A DNA stretch of 64,000 nt, taken from assembly GCA_030153785.1 (NCBI GenBank), contig JASKLF010000005.1:1-64000 (forward strand). Direction: 5' to 3'. Positions 9,556 through 57,835 of this stretch are shown one piece after another (position 1 is the stretch's first letter; each line of letters starts with the position of its first letter). Origin of the DNA: a bacterium (GTDB lineage Bacteria > Synergistota > GBS-1). The position numbers were made by a program, and so were the translations under genes. The notes beneath the pieces are model-generated. The model saw only the letters and a list, made by a program, of their open reading frames with translations. It ran no database searches and was not told the DNA's origin.

Positions 9556-9669
9556 TTGAGTAAGTTAGTGGCTCATCTTCCCAAACGTTGGTTGAAGCGG
9601 AACAAGCAATCCAAGAAGCCTAAGCTTCTGGCTTGGGAAGGTGAGTCTGTTGCTTCAGCTTTGGGCTGA
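9556..9669 (+). CDS. Putative Lys-rich leader peptide (MSKLVAHLPKRWLKRNKQSKKPKLLAWEGESVASALG)
   Basis: GGAGG RBS at 9541, TTG start, 7 Lys and 2 Arg in the first 23 codons; overlaps attenuator segments. Confidence 0.65.
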   Translation: MSKLVAHLPKRWLKRNKQSKKPKLLAWEGESVASALG

Positions 9670-9729
9670 GGCATAACCTTAGGGATTATTAAAGCCCCGC
9701 TCACCTTCCCAAGGTGAGCGGGGCTTTTT
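9572..9729 (+). promoter_or_regulatory. Transcription attenuator (alternative 1:2, 2:3 and 3:4 helices)
   Basis: 9572-9584 pairs with 9633-9645; 9632-9645 is the perfect complement of 9700-9713; terminator 9691-9729 has a 17-bp stem plus U run. Confidence 0.8.
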
Positions 9730-9759
9730 ATATTTCCTTGCTTGAGGAGGGTGGTTAGC

Positions 9760-10616
9760 TTGGGGAAGCGCAAGCTTGGTTAGTTTACTCACGATTGAGG
9801 GTTGAGGAGAAGCTCCTGATAGAAGCTTTTGAGAGGGAGGGTATCAAACTGAACCTGCTTCACGAAGATCAAGTTATCCTTCCTCTCTTCGCAGATGGGG
9901 AATTTCCCATCAAGCCGCCGGCGGTGGTTTTGAATCGTGTGATTTCTGCCTCTCATGCCTTTTACATATCTCGGGTCCTTGAAAGTAAGGGTATAAAGGT
10001 AATTAGCTCTTCAAAGGCCATATCCAACTGCCTGGATAAGGCTTTAACGACTCTTCTTTTAGTGGAAAACGACATACCTATTCCTCGCACTTATCTTGCC
10101 TTTTCTCCTGAAAATGCCTTGGAAGCCATTGAAAGAGTTGGCTATCCTGCAGTTGTTAAACCTGTTAATGGTTCTTGGGGAAGGCTTTTGGCAAAGGTTA
10201 ATGATAAGGATGCGGCGGAAGCTGTTTTGGAGCACAAGTATACATTGGGCAATACCTTGCAGAAGATATTTTACATCCAAGAGTATGTGAATAAGCCGGG
10301 TAGGGATATCAGAAGCTTCGTTATAGGTCGTAAGTGCTTAGCGGCCATATACAGAGTATCTCCTCATTGGATAACAAATACGGCAAGGGGGGGAGAGGCG
10401 AAAAATTGTCCTTTAACTCCCGAGATTATTCAGCTTTCCGAAAAAGCTGCATCCGTTGTCGATGGTGAGATTGTAGCTATTGATATATTTGAGACTCCCT
10501 CTGGGGAGCTTTTGGTTAATGAGATAAATCACTCCCCTGAGTTTAGAAATAGCATTGCCCCTACTGGTGTGGACATTCCAGGGGAGATTGCAAGATATGT
10601 TAAAAGCTTTCTTTAA
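9760..10616 (+). CDS. lysX: Alpha-aminoadipate-LysW ligase LysX (ATP-grasp); apparent 1-nt frameshift near 9780
   Basis: [28 protein letters not shown] and [11 protein letters not shown] motifs; the RBS-preceded TTG 9760 is out of frame with [13 protein letters not shown] by one base. Confidence 0.88.
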
Positions 10617-10630
10617 TGGGGGTGAATTAA

Positions 10631-10801
10631 ATGTTAATCAAATCTCGCTGTCCTGAATGTGATGCTATTTTGGAGTTTGAGGATCCTGAGGTGGGAGAGA
10701 TAATAATATGCCCCGATTGTGGGGTTGAACTTGAGGTTGTTAGTTTGAATCCCTTGGAGCTTGAGATTGCTCCCGAGGTTGAAGAGGATTGGGGGGAATA
10801 G
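10631..10801 (+). CDS. lysW: Amino-group carrier protein LysW (56 aa, missed by the ORF track)
   Basis: MLIKSRCPECDA...CPDCGVELEV...EVEEDWGE: two CxxC motifs and the EDWGE C-terminus. Confidence 0.95.
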   Translation: MLIKSRCPECDAILEFEDPEVGEIIICPDCGVELEVVSLNPLELEIAPEVEEDWGE

Positions 10802-10823
10802 CTTTGGGACGGAAGATAAGAAA

Positions 10824-11654
10824 GTGCTCTTAATTTATACGATACTGAGGGATGAAGAGAGGATAATTGATAAGGCCTTAAGTAAAAGGGGGATAAAGGT
10901 GGAGAAGGTTTTGGGGAACAGAACTCTTTGGGAATTGGGAAATGGACTGCCGGAAGCCAGATTGGCTATAAACAGGACATTAAGCGCTTCTCAGGCGGCT
11001 TATATATCTTTCTTGCTTGAAGAGAGAGGGGTTAAGGTTATAAATCCCTTTAGAACGATGACTATATGCAACGATAAGGCTTTAACCACTGACCTTTTGG
11101 CCAAAGAGGGCGTTCCCGTTCCCCGAACCTATTTAGCCTTTACCCCTGAAAGGGCTTTTGAGGCTCTTGAGGAGATTGGATATCCAGCGGTTATAAAACC
11201 TGTTACTGGCTCTTGGGGAAGGCTTGTGGCAAAGGTAAACGATAGAGATGCAGCGGAGGCTGTAATATCCTATCGCTGGAATTTGGGAAGGGTTCAGCAA
11301 AAAGCCTTCTATATTCAGGAGTATGTTAAGAAGCCTGGAAGAGATATAAGGGTGCTTGTTATTGGGGGAAAGGTCAGGTATGCCGTTTATAGAAGCTCTT
11401 CTCATTGGGTAACCAACACCGCAAGGGGAGCAAGGGCCTACCCCTGTCCCGTTACGAAAGAATTGGCCGATATAGCAGAAAGGGTAGCTTCCATCGTTGG
11501 GGGAGACATAATAGCGTTGGACCTTTTCGAGAGCGAAAAGGGGCTTTTGGTTAACGAGGTTAATTCTACTCCCGAATTTGCAAGGTCTTCTCGTGATGTT
11601 GGCATTGATGTGGGTGAACTTATAGCTGACTATATCGAGGAGGTGCTTTCGTGA
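10824..11654 (+). CDS. lysX: Second LysX/ArgX-family LysW ligase (start uncertain)
   Basis: Paralog of the upstream gene: GSWGRLVA, KPGRDIR, WVTNTARG, EVNSTPEFARS. Confidence 0.85.
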   Translation: MLLIYTILRDEERIIDKALSKRGIKVEKVLGNRTLWELGNGLPEARLAINRTLSASQAAYISFLLEERGVKVINPFRTMTICNDKALTTDLLAKEGVPVPRTYLAFTPERAFEALEEIGYPAVIKPVTGSWGRLVAKVNDRDAAEAVISYRWNLGRVQQKAFYIQEYVKKPGRDIRVLVIGGKVRYAVYRSSSHWVTNTARGARAYPCPVTKELADIAERVASIVGGDIIALDLFESEKGLLVNEVNSTPEFARSSRDVGIDVGELIADYIEEVLS

Positions 11655-12679
11655 AAAAGGCTGTTGTCTTTGGTGGTAGAGGCTATACTGGAGGGGAACT
11701 TTTAAGGATTTTATCCCAGCATGAGGGGATAGAAGTTATAGCCGTTGCCTCTCAGGGGGCGGTAGGCGAGCCTATTTGGAGATATCATCCCCATTTAAGG
11801 GGGTTCTTTAAAGGTGGCTTTGTGAGTTACGAAGATGCTTTAAAAGAGGATTTCGATATAGCCTTTGTTGCTCTTTCGCATGGTGAGGGTGCGGAGCTTG
11901 TAAAGGAGATATACGAAAAGGGTAAAAGGGTGGTTGATTTAAGCGCGAACTTTAGGCTTAAAAATCCCGAGGATTATAGAAAGTGGTATTCTTGGGAGCA
12001 TCCCTTTCCGGAGCTCCTTAGCGAATCGGTTTATGGCTTACCTGAGATTCATCGGGAAAAACTACCTGAGGCAAGGCTTATTTCAGGTGTAGGTTGTAAT
12101 GCTACAGCTATAAATTTGGCTTTGCTTCCATTAACGGAGCGGAACTTATTGAATGCCTTTCACGCTGATATAAGGGTAGGGTCCTCTGCGGGCGGAGCTA
12201 AACCCTCAGAGGGAGGACATCATCCGGAGAGGAGCAGGGCTTTAAGGATTTACGCTACCTATGAACACAGGCATCTTGCGGAGGTTATTCAGGAGACAGG
12301 TGTGAACGGGGAGATAAGGATTACGGCTGTCGAGCTTGTGAGGGGAATACAGGCTGTCATCAGATGTGAGCTTAAGGAGTCGTTAAGTGAAAAGGAGATA
12401 TTGAGAATTTATAGAGATAGATACTCTTCTGAGCCTTTCGTTGAGTTATGTCCTTTCAAGCCGGAACACCTTCGCTTTCCCGATCCAAGGTGGGTTACCG
12501 GTAGCAATCTCTGTATGATTGGCGTTAAGCTTCATCCTGATGGAAGAACTTTAACGGTGGTGAGCGCCATTGATAACTTAGTTAAGGGTGCTTCCGGTAG
12601 TGCTGTTCAGGCTGCGAATGTGGCTTTGGGATTGCCAGAAGATATGGGATTAAGGCTAACACCTGTTTATCCCGTTTAG
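11651..12679 (+). CDS. lysY: LysW-aminoadipyl/glutamyl-phosphate reductase (ArgC family)
   Basis: GGRGYTGGEL, VDLSANFR, GCNATA, HPER and DNLVKGASG motifs. Confidence 0.9.
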   Translation: MKKAVVFGGRGYTGGELLRILSQHEGIEVIAVASQGAVGEPIWRYHPHLRGFFKGGFVSYEDALKEDFDIAFVALSHGEGAELVKEIYEKGKRVVDLSANFRLKNPEDYRKWYSWEHPFPELLSESVYGLPEIHREKLPEARLISGVGCNATAINLALLPLTERNLLNAFHADIRVGSSAGGAKPSEGGHHPERSRALRIYATYEHRHLAEVIQETGVNGEIRITAVELVRGIQAVIRCELKESLSEKEILRIYRDRYSSEPFVELCPFKPEHLRFPDPRWVTGSNLCMIGVKLHPDGRTLTVVSAIDNLVKGASGSAVQAANVALGLPEDMGLRLTPVYPV

Positions 12680-12692
12680 GGGGTGAGCTCTC

Positions 12693-13583
12693 TTGATTGT
12701 CGTAAAGATAGGAGGAAGTCTTAACGGTAATTTTAGAAACGTGTGTGCTGATATAAAAAGGCTTTATGATATGGGCAAGAAGGTAGTCGTGGTTCACGGC
12801 GGAGGAGAGGCAACCAATGAGCTCTCAAGGAGACTGGGAATAGAGGTCGAGAAGGTTATCTCTCCCTCCGGCATTGAGAGTAGAAGGACTACAAAAGAGG
12901 TTCTTGAGGTCTTTGTTATGGCGTGTGCTGGAAAGATAAACAGGTTCTTGGTTGCTGAATTGCAAAGCTTGGGGGTTCAGGCAATTGGGCTAAGCGGAGC
13001 TGATGGAAGGGTAGTGGAGGCCGAGAGGAAGGTTATAAAAGCTGTAACCCCCGAAGGTAAGATAAGGCTTATAAGGGACGATTACTCTGGGAAAATAAGA
13101 AGCATAAACGCAACCTTCTTGAATCAGCTTTTGGATATGGGCTTTGTGCCTGTGGTGGCTCCCGTTGCCTTTAGTTCTGAGGGGGAACTGCTTAATGTAG
13201 ATGGGGATACTTTAGCGAGTAAAATAGCTCTTTGTTTAAAGAGTGAAGATCTGATTATTCTTTCTGATGTTCCAGGTCTTTTAAGGGATTTGAGGGATCC
13301 CGAAAGCCTGATAGAAGATGTTTTTCCCGATATGGAGGCAGAAATTTTAAGGGTGGCTAAGGGCAGGATGAAGAAAAAGGTGATGGCGCTGTTTGAAGCC
13401 GTAAGGGGAGGAGTTGAGAGAGGTATTATAGCCTCTGGATACAATGATAGTCCGATAATATCGGCTTTGCAGGGTAAGGGAACCATTTTCAGGGGAAGGA
13501 GTGAATGCAATTTTGAGCCTGATGGAGTTGGAAGAGAGGTATGGAAGTGGCGTATATCCCAAAGTGCCCTTGAGGCTGGTTAA
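12693..13583 (+). CDS. lysZ: LysW-aminoadipate/glutamate kinase (ArgB family)
   Basis: VVKIGGS, VVHGGG, LLNVDGD and GRMKKK motifs. Confidence 0.9.
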   Translation: MIVVKIGGSLNGNFRNVCADIKRLYDMGKKVVVVHGGGEATNELSRRLGIEVEKVISPSGIESRRTTKEVLEVFVMACAGKINRFLVAELQSLGVQAIGLSGADGRVVEAERKVIKAVTPEGKIRLIRDDYSGKIRSINATFLNQLLDMGFVPVVAPVAFSSEGELLNVDGDTLASKIALCLKSEDLIILSDVPGLLRDLRDPESLIEDVFPDMEAEILRVAKGRMKKKVMALFEAVRGGVERGIIASGYNDSPIISALQGKGTIFRGRSECNFEPDGVGREVWKWRISQSALEAG

Positions 13584-14682
13584 AGGAGAGGGAGCAAAGG
13601 TTTGGGATGAGAATGGCCGAGAGTATATAGATTGCGTTGGAGGACATGGAGTTTGTATAGTGGGTCATTCTAACCCTTATATTATCGAGGCCATAGAGGC
13701 GCAGGCTAAGAAGATAATGGTTTGTTCGGAGACCTTTTATCATGAAGAGAGGGCCTTGCTTTATAAAGAGCTTCTTGAGGTTATGCCCCATTATATGGGT
13801 AGCGTGTTTTTGTGTAATAGCGGAGCTGAGGCGGTAGAAGCGGCTATAAAGTTTGCGAGGATATTAACGGGTAGAAAAAAGATAGTGGCTTTAAAGAGGG
13901 GCTTTCACGGCAGGACCTTTGGCGCCTTAAGCGCCACATGGAATCCCAAATATAGGGAACCCTTCGAGCCGCTGGTCCCGGGATTTGTGCATGTGGACCC
14001 TGAAAATAAGGAAGAGCTTGAGAGCGTTATAGACGAAGATACGGCTGCGTTTATATTTGAACCTGTTCAGGGAGAGGGAGGAGTTTACCCCTTGAGTGGG
14101 GAGTATTTGAAGTTTGCTCAAGAAGTTTGTAAGAGCAAGGGGGCTTTATTTATATCCGATGAGATACAGACTGGTTTTTGTAGAACGGGAAGGTTTTTTG
14201 CCTTCCAAAGGTATGAGCTTTCTCCCGATATAGTTTGCTTGGCGAAGGGGATGGCTGGGGGACTTCCAATAGGTGCTGTTGTCTTAAGGGATTCTTTGGG
14301 TAAGATTCCTTCAAGAACTCATGGTTCCACATTTGGTGGAAATCCTCTTTCTTGTGCTGCTGCAAGGGCGGCTGTAAGATTTATGAGAGAGAATGCCCTC
14401 GATAAGAGGGCTGAAGAGTTGGGCAAGCTCTTCTTGGAGGGCTTAAAAAGTATAAACTCCTCCCTTGTCAGGGATGTAAGAGGTTTAGGTTTAATGATTG
14501 GTGTGGAGCTCAAAAAGAGAAGCGCTCCATACCTTAAGGCTCTGGCTGATGAAGGAGTTTTGGCTCTTCAGGCGGGGCCAACCGTGATGAGGTTTTTACC
14601 CCCTCTTGTGATTAATGAGGATGAAATAAAATTTGTTGTGGATAAAGTTGGGAGGGTGCTTTCGGGTAATGGATCCAATTGA
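13501..14682 (+). CDS. lysJ: LysW-semialdehyde aminotransferase (class III PLP)
   Basis: NSGAEAVE, FHGRT, EPVQGEGG, DEIQTG, LAKG and STFGGNP motifs. Confidence 0.9.
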   Translation: MNAILSLMELEERYGSGVYPKVPLRLVKGEGAKVWDENGREYIDCVGGHGVCIVGHSNPYIIEAIEAQAKKIMVCSETFYHEERALLYKELLEVMPHYMGSVFLCNSGAEAVEAAIKFARILTGRKKIVALKRGFHGRTFGALSATWNPKYREPFEPLVPGFVHVDPENKEELESVIDEDTAAFIFEPVQGEGGVYPLSGEYLKFAQEVCKSKGALFISDEIQTGFCRTGRFFAFQRYELSPDIVCLAKGMAGGLPIGAVVLRDSLGKIPSRTHGSTFGGNPLSCAAARAAVRFMRENALDKRAEELGKLFLEGLKSINSSLVRDVRGLGLMIGVELKKRSAPYLKALADEGVLALQAGPTVMRFLPPLVINEDEIKFVVDKVGRVLSGNGSN

Positions 14683-15706
14683 GCTTCTTTATGGTATGGT
14701 TAGGATAAAGAGCTTTGCTGGAGAGGAAGAGGAGATAGGAAGGTTTCTGCTTGAGGTTTCTGGGAAGCTTAACTTTGACGATGCCTATTTAGATGAGGTT
14801 GGCAATTTTGTCGCTGTTAGAGGTAAAGGTGATACCGAGGTCTATCTTGTAGGGCATATGGATACCGCTCCCGGATGGATAGAGCCTCGTATCGAAGGAA
14901 ATATACTCTTTGGTAGGGGAAGTGTGGATGCGAAGGGACCCTTGGCTACCTTCATTATCGCTGCGTCCGAGGTTTCTCTTCCAGAGGATTTAAAGCTTGT
15001 GGTTGTGGGAGCTGTTGAGGAAGAGGGGCTTTCAACGGGTGCTTTACACCTTTTAAACAAGGTTTCTAAGCCACCCGCCTATCTTATAATAGGGGAGCCA
15101 AGCGGTGTTGATGGGGTTACTTTGGGATATAAAGGTTCTCTCTTCATCAAGAAGAGTTTCGTGTCCGATGTATCCCATCCCGCTTCGGGAAATGAGGGAG
15201 CTATAGAAGAGGGCTTAAAGAGCCTTCAAGAGATAAGTAAGATTTTGGAGAAATTAAATGAGGGAAAAGATAGTCCCATAGATAGGGTTGATATGAAGGT
15301 AAGGGAAATAGTTTCTACGAGCGATGGATTAACCGAGAGGCTTCATCTCGGAGTATCTTTTAGGCTACCTTTATGGATTGATCCCGATGAGCTTCTTAAT
15401 ATTTTAGGAGATGGCTGGAAGCCTCACTTTAAAGCGAAGGCATACAGGTGCGAAAGAAATAACCCGTTGGTTTCGGCCTTTAACAGGGCTATAAGGAGCA
15501 AAGGCCTTAAGCCGAAACATAAAATGAAAAGTGGAACTGCAGATATGAACTTATTGGCTCCCGTTTGGGGTTGTCCATCGGTGGCTTATGGTCCGGGTGA
15601 CAGTTCCCTTGACCATACCCCAAGGGAGCATATAAATATAAAGGAGTATCTCCTCTCTATCGAGATATTAAAAGAGGTTTTGCGCTCCATTCCTCCCACC
15701 CTATAG
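14669..15706 (+). CDS. lysK: LysW-lysine/ornithine hydrolase (M20)
   Basis: GHMDT, GRGSVDAKG, VEEE, GTADMN and YGPGDSSLDHTP motifs. Confidence 0.9.
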   Translation: MDPIELLYGMVRIKSFAGEEEEIGRFLLEVSGKLNFDDAYLDEVGNFVAVRGKGDTEVYLVGHMDTAPGWIEPRIEGNILFGRGSVDAKGPLATFIIAASEVSLPEDLKLVVVGAVEEEGLSTGALHLLNKVSKPPAYLIIGEPSGVDGVTLGYKGSLFIKKSFVSDVSHPASGNEGAIEEGLKSLQEISKILEKLNEGKDSPIDRVDMKVREIVSTSDGLTERLHLGVSFRLPLWIDPDELLNILGDGWKPHFKAKAYRCERNNPLVSAFNRAIRSKGLKPKHKMKSGTADMNLLAPVWGCPSVAYGPGDSSLDHTPREHINIKEYLLSIEILKEVLRSIPPTL

Positions 15707-49620: not shown

Positions 49621-49644
49621 ATACCAGAATAGCTTAATAGGGCT

Positions 49645-49918
49645 AAAGGCTGTGAAGGGGTGAAGTAGGCTTCACCTCGCCGACAGAGAGGGAGCGCCAA
49701 CGGGGCTGAGAGCGCTCCTCGGAGTTGAGGCGAAGCTGAAACGGGCCCCTGAGCCGAGGCTCGAAGAAAGGCTTAATGTAGCCAAGTAGAGCCTCCGGAT
49801 GGCTCCGTTAAAGGCCGCTAAAGTGGGTAGAAGGGAAAGGTTACCTTTCTACCAAGAAGGGTGGCACCGCGAGGCTTGATAGATAAGCCCCGCCCCTTAT
49901 AGGGGGTGGGGCTTTTTT
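49645..49918 (+). ncRNA. T-box riboswitch, probable Arg (CGG) specifier
   Basis: GA motif, AGTA, AGAGA and GCTGAGA stem I elements; GAA-A-CGG at 49738-49744; stem II/CCGTTA; AGGGTGGCACCGCG T-box; terminator 49885-49918. Confidence 0.9.
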
Positions 49919-54798: not shown

Positions 54799-56119
54799 GA
54801 AGCTGGTTGTTATAGGTGGTGTAGCGGCTGGCCCTTCTGCGGCCTTTAAGGCGAAGAGAACCAATCCTGATCTGGAGGTTCTTTTGATAACCGATGAAGA
54901 AGACTTGTCCTATGGAGCCTGTGGTTTACCTTACTTGATAAGCAGAAAAATTTCTGAGAGAAGAAGGCTTGTTGCAAGAGACGTTGAGGCTTTTAGAAAA
55001 GGGGGTATAGATGTCAGGCTTAAAACCCGTGTAGAGAAGATAGATGTGAATGGAAGGTTCGTTGTGGCAGGCGGGGAAAATATACGCTACGATTATCTTC
55101 TTATAGCTACGGGTGCAAGCCCCCTTATTCCCCCCTTTGAAGGGGTTAACCTTGATGGAGTTTTTACCTTAAGAACCCTTAGGGATGGCGATAGAATAAT
55201 AGATTATATAAGAAGAGAAAACCCTTGGAAGGCAGTCATAGTTGGTGCAGGCTATATAGGGGTTGAGATGGCAGAGAGCTTTGCTTCTTTGGGTATGAGA
55301 GTTACCATGGTTGAGCTCATGCCTCATATACTCATTAACATGGATGGCGACATTGCAGAGAAGGTGGAGAATTACCTTAGGGAAAACAGGGTCGAGGTTT
55401 TAACATCTACAAAGGTTTTGGGTTTCGAGGGAAAAAGAAGGGTAGAGAGGGTTATAACCGATAAAGGAAAGATCGAGGCTGACATAGTCCTTCTCGCCAT
55501 AGGGGTTAGACCGAATTCGGAGCTGGCTAAGGAAGCCGGCTTAGCATTGGGGCCGAAGGGCTCCATAGATGTCAATAATCTCATGGAAACATCCGTTCCG
55601 GGGATTTACGCGGCGGGTGATTGTGCCGATGCCGTGCATCTTGTGACAGGTAAAAAGGTTTATATTCCTCTTGGCAGTACCGCTAATAAGCAGGGAAGGG
55701 TTGCGGGTAGCAACATTGCGGGTGAGCGCGCAATCTTCCCAGGGGTCGTGGGAACCGCTATAGCTAAGGTGATGGATATGGAGATAGCGAGAACGGGGTT
55801 AAGTGTCGAGGAGGCGAAGGCTGAAGGATTAAAGATAAAAACTTCCCTTATAGAGTCACACACTACAGCCGGCTATTACCCTGGTGGTTCCTCTATCTCG
55901 GTAAAGATAGTAGCTGAGGAGGAAACGGGTAGAATACTTGGTGGACAGATATTCGGTGGGCCGGGAAGTGCGATGAGAATTAACGCCCTGGCTGTTGCGG
56001 TATCAAGCGGAATGAAGATATGGGATTTTGCTTATCTTGACTTGGCGTATGCGCCTCCCTTTGCTCCCGTATGGGATCCTCTGCTTGTTGCTGCGCAAAA
56101 TCTTCTTAAAGAATATTAG
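54791..56119 (+). CDS. CoA-disulfide reductase / NADH oxidase family flavoprotein
   Basis: GGVAAG, SYGACGLPY, GAGYIG and YAPPF motifs. Confidence 0.88.
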   Translation: MPEKLVVIGGVAAGPSAAFKAKRTNPDLEVLLITDEEDLSYGACGLPYLISRKISERRRLVARDVEAFRKGGIDVRLKTRVEKIDVNGRFVVAGGENIRYDYLLIATGASPLIPPFEGVNLDGVFTLRTLRDGDRIIDYIRRENPWKAVIVGAGYIGVEMAESFASLGMRVTMVELMPHILINMDGDIAEKVENYLRENRVEVLTSTKVLGFEGKRRVERVITDKGKIEADIVLLAIGVRPNSELAKEAGLALGPKGSIDVNNLMETSVPGIYAAGDCADAVHLVTGKKVYIPLGSTANKQGRVAGSNIAGERAIFPGVVGTAIAKVMDMEIARTGLSVEEAKAEGLKIKTSLIESHTTAGYYPGGSSISVKIVAEEETGRILGGQIFGGPGSAMRINALAVAVSSGMKIWDFAYLDLAYAPPFAPVWDPLLVAAQNLLKEY

Positions 56120-56807
56120 CTATAGAGTCATAAACGAATTGGGCTAAGGTCAGAAAGTCAAAGACGGGTAGACCAAGCTCCATTTGAACTCTCGGTGTAT
56201 AAGGCGGTAGGTTATGGCATTCAAAGAGGATAGCTTTTGTATCGGGATGTTCATAAACTAACTCTTTTGCCGTTTCTAACACTTCCTTTTCTATCTTTAT
56301 AAAATCTCCATCAGGGGAGTCCTCGAGTATGACCCTTTTGGATTCGCTTTTGCCTTCAAGCCCCTTTATCCCAAGGGGAATTCCCTTGCCTCCCGCGGCT
56401 TCAATATGAGATTCAGACAGCGACCTTGAGTTTGCGGTTATGATGCCGATTTTCCCCCTCACCATCTTGTAAATCAAAGGTATCATTATTAGCCCTGAGG
56501 CGAATACGGGAACCTTTACCTCCTGGGCTAACCTGTCCTGAAATAGAACGGTGAAACCGCAGCTTGTGGTTATTGCCTTTACTCCTTCCGCTTCGAGCTC
56601 TTTTGCCCCTTTTATAAATGCATCTATAAGGCTTTCTTCCGTTTTCCAGACCACCGTTTTAAGGTTTGCCCCCTTAACCTTTTTAAGCTTCACGGGGAAT
56701 GGATAGGTCTGGGGATTACCCACATCACCTATTATTCTTGGAAATTTAGTTTCAAGCATCAATACTCCGAGGATGGCGGTATTTCCCTTCATGGTTGAAA
56801 ACCTCAC
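56106..56807 (-). CDS. Asp/Glu racemase-superfamily protein
   Basis: FPRIIGDVGN, TTSCGF and ECHNLPPY motifs. Confidence 0.8.
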   Translation of the reverse strand: MRFSTMKGNTAILGVLMLETKFPRIIGDVGNPQTYPFPVKLKKVKGANLKTVVWKTEESLIDAFIKGAKELEAEGVKAITTSCGFTVLFQDRLAQEVKVPVFASGLIMIPLIYKMVRGKIGIITANSRSLSESHIEAAGGKGIPLGIKGLEGKSESKRVILEDSPDGDFIKIEKEVLETAKELVYEHPDTKAILFECHNLPPYTPRVQMELGLPVFDFLTLAQFVYDSIANIL

Positions 56808-57596
56808 TTACAGGTCTTTTCTAAAAGGCTTATAGGCTAAAAGCTCTAAAAGAACTTCGGCTAAAAGGCCGGGAACTCTTCCTATGGCAAATATTCCCCT
56901 TCCCGTTAGGTAGGGGAATCCCATGTCGCTAAGTATGGACCCTGAGGCTCCGTCTATGTTCATATATATTCCCTTATGTTCCGAAAGTAGCTTTTCGATC
57001 TCTATGGCGAGCTTTAGATGCGGACCATCCACTTCCAGTTCTTTCGCTAATGCAATTAATGCGGGAGGACGTGGATCCCTGTTATGGTATCTATGTCCGT
57101 ATCCCGGTATTTTTTTGCCGTTTTTCATGTGATCTTCAAATATTACCTGAGCTGCCTCTTTGAAGGATAGACCTTCCTTCTCTATTAGCCTTTCTACGCT
57201 CTCCTGAAAGAGCTTCATGGCAAGCTCTATTGCACCCGCGTGGTGATCCCCGAAGGCTAATATTCCTCCTGCTATTGCAGCTTGAATGGGGGAACCGGCA
57301 GAAACTATAAGTCTTGCGGTTTTCGTGCTTGCCGGCGTTGGCCCGTGGTCACACATGGCTACGAAGATTGCTTCAAGCATTCTTGCCCTTTCCGGAGACG
57401 GTCTTTCACCTTTAAGAAGAAACCAGACCACTTCTGCGAAGCTCCAGCTTCTTATAAGCTCTTCTATTCTTATTCCCCTGACTATGATGTGATTAGGTTC
57501 TATCTTTGTTATCCCTCTGTCTGGAGGGATGGGAATCTCCTTGCTTGGTGACATTTTGATCTCCCGCCTTTCTCTCTGGTCTTCTAATAAACTCAC
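56808..57596 (-). CDS. Citryl-CoA lyase / short citrate-synthase-family protein
   Basis: DHG-TPAST, GDHHAGA, PGYGHR, DPR and NIDG motifs; 262 aa; AGGAGG RBS. Confidence 0.85.
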   Translation of the reverse strand: MSLLEDQRERREIKMSPSKEIPIPPDRGITKIEPNHIIVRGIRIEELIRSWSFAEVVWFLLKGERPSPERARMLEAIFVAMCDHGPTPASTKTARLIVSAGSPIQAAIAGGILAFGDHHAGAIELAMKLFQESVERLIEKEGLSFKEAAQVIFEDHMKNGKKIPGYGHRYHNRDPRPPALIALAKELEVDGPHLKLAIEIEKLLSEHKGIYMNIDGASGSILSDMGFPYLTGRGIFAIGRVPGLLAEVLLELLAYKPFRKDL

Positions 57597-57633
57597 GATT
57601 AAGACACCTCCTAAGGTTTAATGAGACGGTAAC

Positions 57634-57777
57634 AAAAAAGCCCGCTCCAGATTTTCTGGAGCGGGCCAGGAAGTCGAAAATAAGCTGATCTCGGGTTACC
57701 GCCCGAGATATCCTGGCCCCTATTCGCTTCTTCTCCTTCTTAAGGCTAAATACTTTAAAAGCTACAGCCCTTCTCAT
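57634..57777 (-). promoter_or_regulatory. Lys-rich leader ORF plus attenuator
   Basis: GGAGG-ATG, MRRAVAFKVFSLKKEKKR; antiterminator 57711-57719 with 57663-57671; terminator with a 12-bp stem at 57640-57666 plus U6. Confidence 0.72.
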
Positions 57778-57806
57778 TTTTGCCTCCGTTTAGATGCTTT
57801 TCTCCT

Positions 57807-57835
57807 ATTTTATCTTAGGAGTTTATGCTAGTCAA
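57807..57835 (-). promoter_or_regulatory. Sigma70 promoter upstream of the leader
   Basis: TTGACT-17 nt-TAAAAT on the minus strand. Confidence 0.7.

Follow-up and report, generated by a model that had tools for sequence, protein, structure and literature searches.

The stretch of DNA analysed here, called the window, comprises the first 64,000 nucleotides of contig JASKLF010000005.1 (assembly GCA_030153785.1) from a bacterium of the Synergistota lineage GBS-1. On its minus strand, a promoter and a leader peptide gene precede a gene of the citryl-CoA lyase (CCL) family, here named ccl, which is followed by a gene of the Asp/Glu-racemase superfamily; elsewhere in the window lies an operon for LysW-type lysine synthesis (Table 1). 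An earlier reading, made from the letters alone (the sequence-only reading), had described the promoter, the GGAGG-ATG start, the KKEKK leader, the antiterminator arm, the terminator, the 262-aa ccl and the racemase-like gene, and all of these were found where it had placed them. Its suggestion that ccl serves the lysine route stands as far as the link itself is concerned, since comparative evidence gives good support both to Lys-sensing attenuation and to a connection of ccl with LysW-type lysine synthesis; the chemistry it assigned to the enzyme, condensation of acetyl-CoA with 2-oxoglutarate, is retained below as a prediction. Genomes are referred to by handles where they must be told apart: G000 is the window's own genome (96% complete), G001 belongs to the same genus, and G002 and G003 to the same family.

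Table 1. Positions of the leader, ccl and lysine-synthesis features in the window.
Feature	Position	Strand	Remark
Sigma-70-like promoter, TTGACT-17-TAAAAT	57807..57835	minus	10/12 consensus matches
Leader ribosome-binding site, GGAGG	57783..57787	minus	equivalent sites in G001 and G003
Leader peptide gene, 30 codons plus codon 31	57685..57777	minus	ATG at 57777
KKEKK (AAG AAG GAG AAG AAG), Lys codons 13, 14, 16, 17; predicted sensor	57727..57741	minus	invariant in 3/3 genomes
Antiterminator 5' arm, GGGCCAGGA	57711..57719	minus	complementary to 57671-57663
Inner 8-pair hairpin inside the antiterminator	57688..57709	minus	one pair with changes on both sides
Intrinsic terminator and U tract	57633..57667	minus	13-pair stem 57667-57639
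ccl, CCL family (citrate-synthase fold), 262 aa, PF00285/NF004866	56808..57596	minus	start GTG 57596 or ATG 57554
Racemase-superfamily gene, PRK07475/NF005679, abuts ccl	56106..56807	minus	likely start ATG 56792
lysX1-lysW-lysX2-lysY-lysZ-lysJ-lysK operon	9795..15706	plus	LysX1 with aminoadipate-type signature F-I-T-NS
Second leader rich in Lys (7 Lys), in front of the lysW operon, with antiterminator/terminator	9556..9731	plus	conserved in G001-G003

A lysine-codon leader in front of ccl

The leader has the composition of an attenuator: a short open reading frame (ORF) with a ribosome-binding site and a conserved start and frame, a Lys cluster at stalling distance from the antiterminator arm, and mutually exclusive antiterminator and terminator structures. 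The segment that pairs with the arm overlaps the 5' side of the terminator, five of whose 13 arm bases are sequestered by the antiterminator, and K13 and K14 sit 22 and 19 nt ahead of the arm in both G000 and G001. Four lysines in five residues occur in only 27 of 15,664 proteome segments of 22 aa, and in a scan of 303 upstream regions, which missed the leader of the lysW operon, ccl had the top K-rich leader among candidates with both leader and terminator. The promoter match is weak alone, because six promoter-type sites were found against 3.9 expected by chance; it scores best among them, and TTGACT is also present at the equivalent place upstream of the G001 and G003 leaders.

The relatives bear out the claim that this arrangement is not a chance one. 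G001 and G003 retain the ribosome-binding site, an ATG exactly 12 codons ahead of an unchanged KKEKK, the 9-nt arm, the inner hairpin and the terminator, whose energy is about -25 to -28 kcal/mol in the three genomes; the leader stops at codon 31 in G001 and at codon 29 in G003. The sequence-only reading had noted that the window's frame lacks a stop before the terminator, and this is correct: codon 31 is CAG (position 57687), and the frame stays open for 94 codons, to 57493. The 1-nt deletion offered as the cause is ruled out, the bases after KKR being invariant in 3/3 genomes. When the codon-31 allele was read from eight of the 20 runs listed (one run lacking coverage of the site), contigs from five runs of four studies carried TAG, and CAG was confined to two runs from a fifth study, from which the window may itself derive. 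The missing stop is a single-base TAG/CAG allele, and the natural stop is codon 31. The CAG allele may let ribosomes run through the terminator, leaving this copy leaky.

In ribosome-masked folding of the nascent RNA, the antiterminator (-27 to -36 kcal/mol) formed when the ribosome was stalled at K13-K16 and was lost once it reached codon 22. The leader would thus act as a ribosome-mediated attenuator that turns on the gene behind it under lysine shortage: ribosomes held up at Lys13/14 would leave the arm free, and those that pass the Lys codons would cover the arm and stop at codon 31, allowing the terminator to form. The inner hairpin is a possible pause site. Sensing of arginine was rejected, as the conserved Arg18 lies only 6 nt before the arm, so that a ribosome stalled there would presumably cover it.

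A block of about 38 nt, synonymous positions included, is nearly invariant in the three genomes, which, together with the missing stop of the window allele, would also be expected if the block were an RNA element (a protein-binding site or an unknown riboswitch) and the Lys codons were incidental. We consider this very improbable, given that the start, the ribosome-binding site, the frame and the position of the stop are retained despite the divergence of leader codons 2-10 among G000, G001 and G003, that Rfam models gave no match in the ccl leader, T-box and lysine riboswitch included, that the own genome has similarly built leaders for Trp, Tyr and Ile/Leu/Val, and that K-rich leaders precede lysY in other genomes. 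The leader is very likely a real lysine attenuator, its lysine-dependent switching being predicted from sequence.

The combination of a short leader, sensing codons in tandem some 20 nt ahead of the antiterminator arm and a competing terminator is shared with classical attenuators such as Escherichia coli trpL and the Lys-codon leader of the Thermus thermophilus lysine cluster; unlike these, the present leader controls a CCL-family gene, has no separate 1:2 protector helix that we could identify, and has lost its stop in the window allele. The mechanism is ordinary and of a known kind, and its value here lies in the evidence it gives for the role of ccl. The organism uses the design widely, since the same scan recovered leader peptides rich in Tyr, Trp or Ile/Leu/Val, together with terminators (C4:101623, C1:201411, C3:82747, C9:70465 and C1:11515 of the own genome).

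The ccl enzyme and its neighbour

The ccl product scores 289.6 bits against the citryl-CoA lyase model NF004866 (cut-off 245) and, with its CCL fold, belongs to the PRK06224 family. The nearest structure is the CCL of Hydrogenobacter thermophilus (6HXP; E 1.7e-51, 40% identity), to which the structure model of ccl (a monomer, mean pLDDT confidence 90.5, which gave no substrate information) compares with a TM score of 0.84. PMC13147460 lists eight Si-citrate-synthase residues; counted from ATG 57554, seven of them correspond to H70, H105, H154, R162, D201, F222 and R226, all invariant in 20/20 alignment rows, the mapping of the eighth (Arg407 type) being uncertain. PF00285 was the only domain found, the PF00682 TIM barrel of DRE-TIM homocitrate synthases giving no match. 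By these sequence features the product is a genuine condensing or cleaving enzyme.

In size and catalytic residues it resembles the H. thermophilus enzyme (EC 4.1.3.34; the PDB title of 6HXP names '(3S)-citryl-CoA') and the CCL module of ATP-citrate lyase. It differs from these in its predicted lysine control, in forming a clade separate from other family members (6HXP is not in the tree), and in that no partner of the citryl-CoA synthetase family (PF00549) was found in G000, so that the synthetase/CCL pair of the reductive tricarboxylic acid cycle is not seen. The nearest named homologues, at 50-57% identity, are Methanobacteriales proteins annotated 'citryl-CoA lyase / citrate synthase', whose genes, unlike ccl, are neighbours either of prpD and a fumarase-like gene or of a transporter cluster, have no lysW genes beside them and fall outside the clade.

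At the start of ccl, nine orthologues show an overlapping ORF of 50-100 codons in another frame, ending in H-[LI]-G-R-D-G-E-W-W and resembling the family's N-terminal Trp motif split off (L033 (G032), L034 (G006), L035 (G012), L036 (G021), L030, L084 (G080), L083 (G074), L089 (G114) and L252 (G176)). The ORFs at this place in G001 and G003, likewise out of frame, are shorter and end close to a Trp; the 14 extra codons of the window are in frame.

The downstream racemase-like product (260 bits against PRK07475, cut-off 231) has two Cys motifs, TSCG and ECHN, whose Cys pair we take to be catalytic. The sequence-only reading had cast it as a partner of ccl, a role for which we see no support: G002 has the gene at the same place with neither ccl nor leader, and it was not found in G006 or G012, both of which carry ccl in a lysW operon. 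Other copies adjoin saccharopine-dehydrogenase-like or M24-peptidase genes. It is probably a bystander, and a function as needed partner or homoaconitate isomerase is unsupported.

Lysine genes in the own genome and across the phylum

The LysW pathway is already known (described, for example, in PMC3356886). In G000 its lower part resembles the LysW/AmCP aminoadipate pathway of T. thermophilus, the signature of LysX1 being the aminoadipate type of Table 1 in PMC12998189; LysX2 (10761-11654, plus strand) has the signature L-V-T-RS, which fits no LysX, ArgX or bifunctional type listed in that paper. The operon is preceded by a Lys leader similar to that of ccl, as had been claimed. Profile searches of G000 found no lysA, citF or CoA-ligase family (PF00549) gene and only a sub-threshold match for dapB; in G001 and G003, dapA gave a match over its cut-off and dapB was not found. 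Elsewhere in the window, a T-box (RF00230, 105.9 bits; 49643-49900, plus strand) precedes carA-carB, its specifier by eye being CGG (Arg).

The claim that a homocitrate synthase is missing holds with a qualification. DRE-TIM matches in G000 are LeuA, a 4-hydroxy-2-oxovalerate aldolase, a carboxyltransferase-type protein and a 402-aa protein on contig C13. The last falls below every homocitrate-synthase cut-off, lies in a TRAP/GntR operon and differs from 6KTQ at motifs that presumably shape the substrate pocket; its gene is broken in G003, was not found in G002 and is present in the lysW-negative G028 and G029. On this sequence evidence it is a poor candidate, and G000 appears to have no convincing homocitrate synthase. 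Beyond leuCD/leuB, the genome has two more HacAB pairs, an HD protein and a gene resembling homoisocitrate dehydrogenase (hicdh), and a full-length separate citrate synthase adjoins the aconitase and isocitrate dehydrogenase genes.

Orthologues of ccl were found in 13 of 268 genomes from the same phylum (probably Synergistota), and the 12 included in a tree built by a quick method form one clade (SH-aLRT support 100) apart from methanogen and other family members. Eleven of the 13 are tied to lysine: three by their own Lys leader, six by lying inside a lysW operon (G006, G012, G032, G076, G114 and G176; four genera, three families), between lysX or a terminator and lysY, and two (G021 and G080) by a TGGT-N4-ACCA box shared between the ccl and lysW promoters. 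These promoters hold the only intergenic matches to the box in the two genomes (3/7 and 2/3 of all places, respectively). No lysine link was seen for ccl in G023 or in G074, whose contig ends before the promoter. The lysX-like gene that precedes ccl in G076 (L085, 370-1218) is degenerate, with 25% identity and a loss of motifs. Intergenic boxes in G023 (L222) and G074 (L230) precede genes named by eye as class IV aminotransferase- and kynureninase-like, possibly a 2-oxoadipate-related regulon.

Among 171 genomes, 12 of them with ccl, lysW is present in 11 of the 12 (71 overall), and so is, in all 12, an HD protein (62 overall) that marks a double-homoaconitase cluster, HD-hacAB-hacAB. The distribution of lysA is the reverse (2/12 against 134/171 overall), ccl occurring in 10/37 lysA-negative and 2/134 lysA-positive genomes; no statistical test is claimed, because the genomes are related and the counts not independent. 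Nine of the 12 have no intact DRE-TIM candidate of 400 aa. In a scripted survey, a Lys-containing leader with an antiterminator followed lysX in 12 of 17 regions, the other five failing or having none. We regard a tie between ccl and lysine synthesis as highly likely.

In many lysW operons of the phylum (L043-L057) the gap between lysX and lysY holds a Lys-rich leader and a terminator, and some of these operons also have a T-box before lysW, giving double lysine control. These T-box-like leaders have an AAA or AAG specifier in eight genomes (by eye) and fell below the Rfam cut-off in the five loci, among nine scanned, where one was expected. The HD protein commonly belongs to a conserved GntR-HD-hacA-hacB-hacA-hacB-hicdh-citD-citE-citF cluster with its own CitE/CitF clade (L058-L070); the counterpart in the own family (C7:12007-17485 of the own genome) consists of HD-hac-hac and a dihydrolipoamide-dehydrogenase-like gene, with no citDEF. 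Many relatives have aconitase-icd followed by citDEF where the own family has citrate synthase. The citDEF of G002, considered as a substitute for ccl, falls outside the clade of the hac clusters.

A predicted citrate-synthase-fold entry to the aminoadipate route

We propose, with a probability of roughly 0.6, that the ccl enzyme joins acetyl-CoA to 2-oxoglutarate in an Si-type reaction and so would take the place of homocitrate synthase as first enzyme of the LysW/aminoadipate route, as a one-carbon-longer counterpart of citrate synthase under lysine control. Si stereochemistry is predicted for CCL (bioRxiv 10.1101/2025.03.31.646503), and the product would therefore be (S)-homocitryl-CoA and then (S)-homocitrate, the mirror form of the usual (R)-homocitrate, with which fungal homoaconitase was assayed (PMC6268379). 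An (S)-product would require a second dehydratase pair, as seen, and could explain the two different homoaconitase-like pairs of the HD cluster. Homoisocitrate dehydrogenase would then yield 2-oxoadipate for LysX/W/Z/Y/J/K. CoA might be released by slow intrinsic hydrolysis, by the HD protein or by an unlinked thioesterase. The enzyme would share its reaction and pathway position with the DRE-TIM homocitrate synthases of Thermus, Sulfolobus and fungi, unlike which it has an unrelated fold, a product of predicted opposite handedness and a CoA release that is not accounted for. The chances are about even that this entry, the HD protein and the two homoaconitase-like pairs constitute an upper pathway not described before, with CCL-like and CitDEF-like enzymes as interchangeable ends of a reversible 2-oxoglutarate/2-oxoadipate route.

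Several observations weigh against this proposal. Sequence cannot separate use of 2-oxoglutarate from that of oxaloacetate, the CCL reaction is near equilibrium (-2.1 kJ/mol in the table of PMC13147460), no CoA-releasing partner was identified, and the intact 402-408-aa DRE-TIM protein of G000, G001 and G021 could still act as a synthase. In the leader, whose helices had been expected to be conserved, they are kept in G001 and G003, but pair counts on the four aligned rows, the fourth of which aligns poorly, do not exceed those of shuffles; because covariation is not significant with four rows, the structure rests on complementarity and geometry. The Lys codons of G006, G012 and G114 lie 60-100 nt from the arm, and TGGT-N4-ACCA is not enriched genome-wide in G080 (4 against 8 control matches). 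As for the co-occurrence that the sequence-only reading had suggested as a check, 60 of the 71 lysW genomes have no ccl, including the family member G002 (96% complete), as do 15 of the 24 that are lysW-positive and lysA-negative, and G001 and G003 have lysA. Among metagenome loci (80 kept of at least 257 confirmed), 78 belong to a Methanobacteriales-like type that has prpD and a fumarase-like gene but no lysW genes nearby, the remaining two being copies of the ccl clade. Finally, 18 genomes without lysW have the HD-hac cluster, and most HD-hac clusters are led by a GntR/FCD regulator, which suggests catabolism. Among the Methanobacteriales-type loci, L117, L119, L122 and similar ones show a cluster of prpD, a 300-aa gene and a fumarase-like gene; in a Thermoplasmatota record (L032), ccl follows a gene that is citF-like by eye, with no profile match.

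Since the closest characterised relative acts on citryl-CoA, the leader could sense lysine while ccl encodes an ordinary citrate synthase or CCL, specific for oxaloacetate, that raises 2-oxoglutarate/glutamate supply for lysine synthesis, homocitrate coming from LeuA, the 402-aa protein or a reversed citrate-lyase-like complex. Such a role would suit the lack of a full-length citrate synthase in the ccl genomes other than G000, G001 and G003, and the many lysW genomes that manage without ccl; it fits poorly with the full citrate synthase already present in those three, with the failure to find a citryl-CoA synthetase family member or CitF in G000, and with the 12/12 co-occurrence of ccl and the HD-hac marker, and we judge it unlikely. 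Quite unlikely, too, is an accessory role, in which the enzyme acts on homocitryl-CoA, the HD-hac-hicdh-citDEF genes form a mainly catabolic 2-oxoadipate route that ccl biases, repairs or detoxifies, and aminoadipate is largely scavenged or made otherwise. Besides the lysW-negative HD-hac clusters, it is favoured by the presence of citDEF and a GntR regulator in the 13 clusters read from genomes beyond the own family, one of them truncated at a contig end, by the patchiness of ccl, and by G008, which has lysW and no aconitase or isocitrate-dehydrogenase family match. Synthesis is indicated instead by the predicted on-switch at low lysine, by the location of ccl within lysW operons and by its concentration in lysA-negative genomes.

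Our literature search, which covered mostly non-subscription papers and no supplements, found none on a CCL-family enzyme in lysine synthesis. If the condensation of acetyl-CoA with 2-oxoglutarate by ccl is correct, it would fill a pathway hole in LysW genomes that have no homocitrate synthase or lysA, and a stand-alone branch of PRK06224, a widespread family that is mostly unassigned, would gain its first function. Homocitrate synthesis would then have arisen from a second fold, with predicted opposite stereochemistry.

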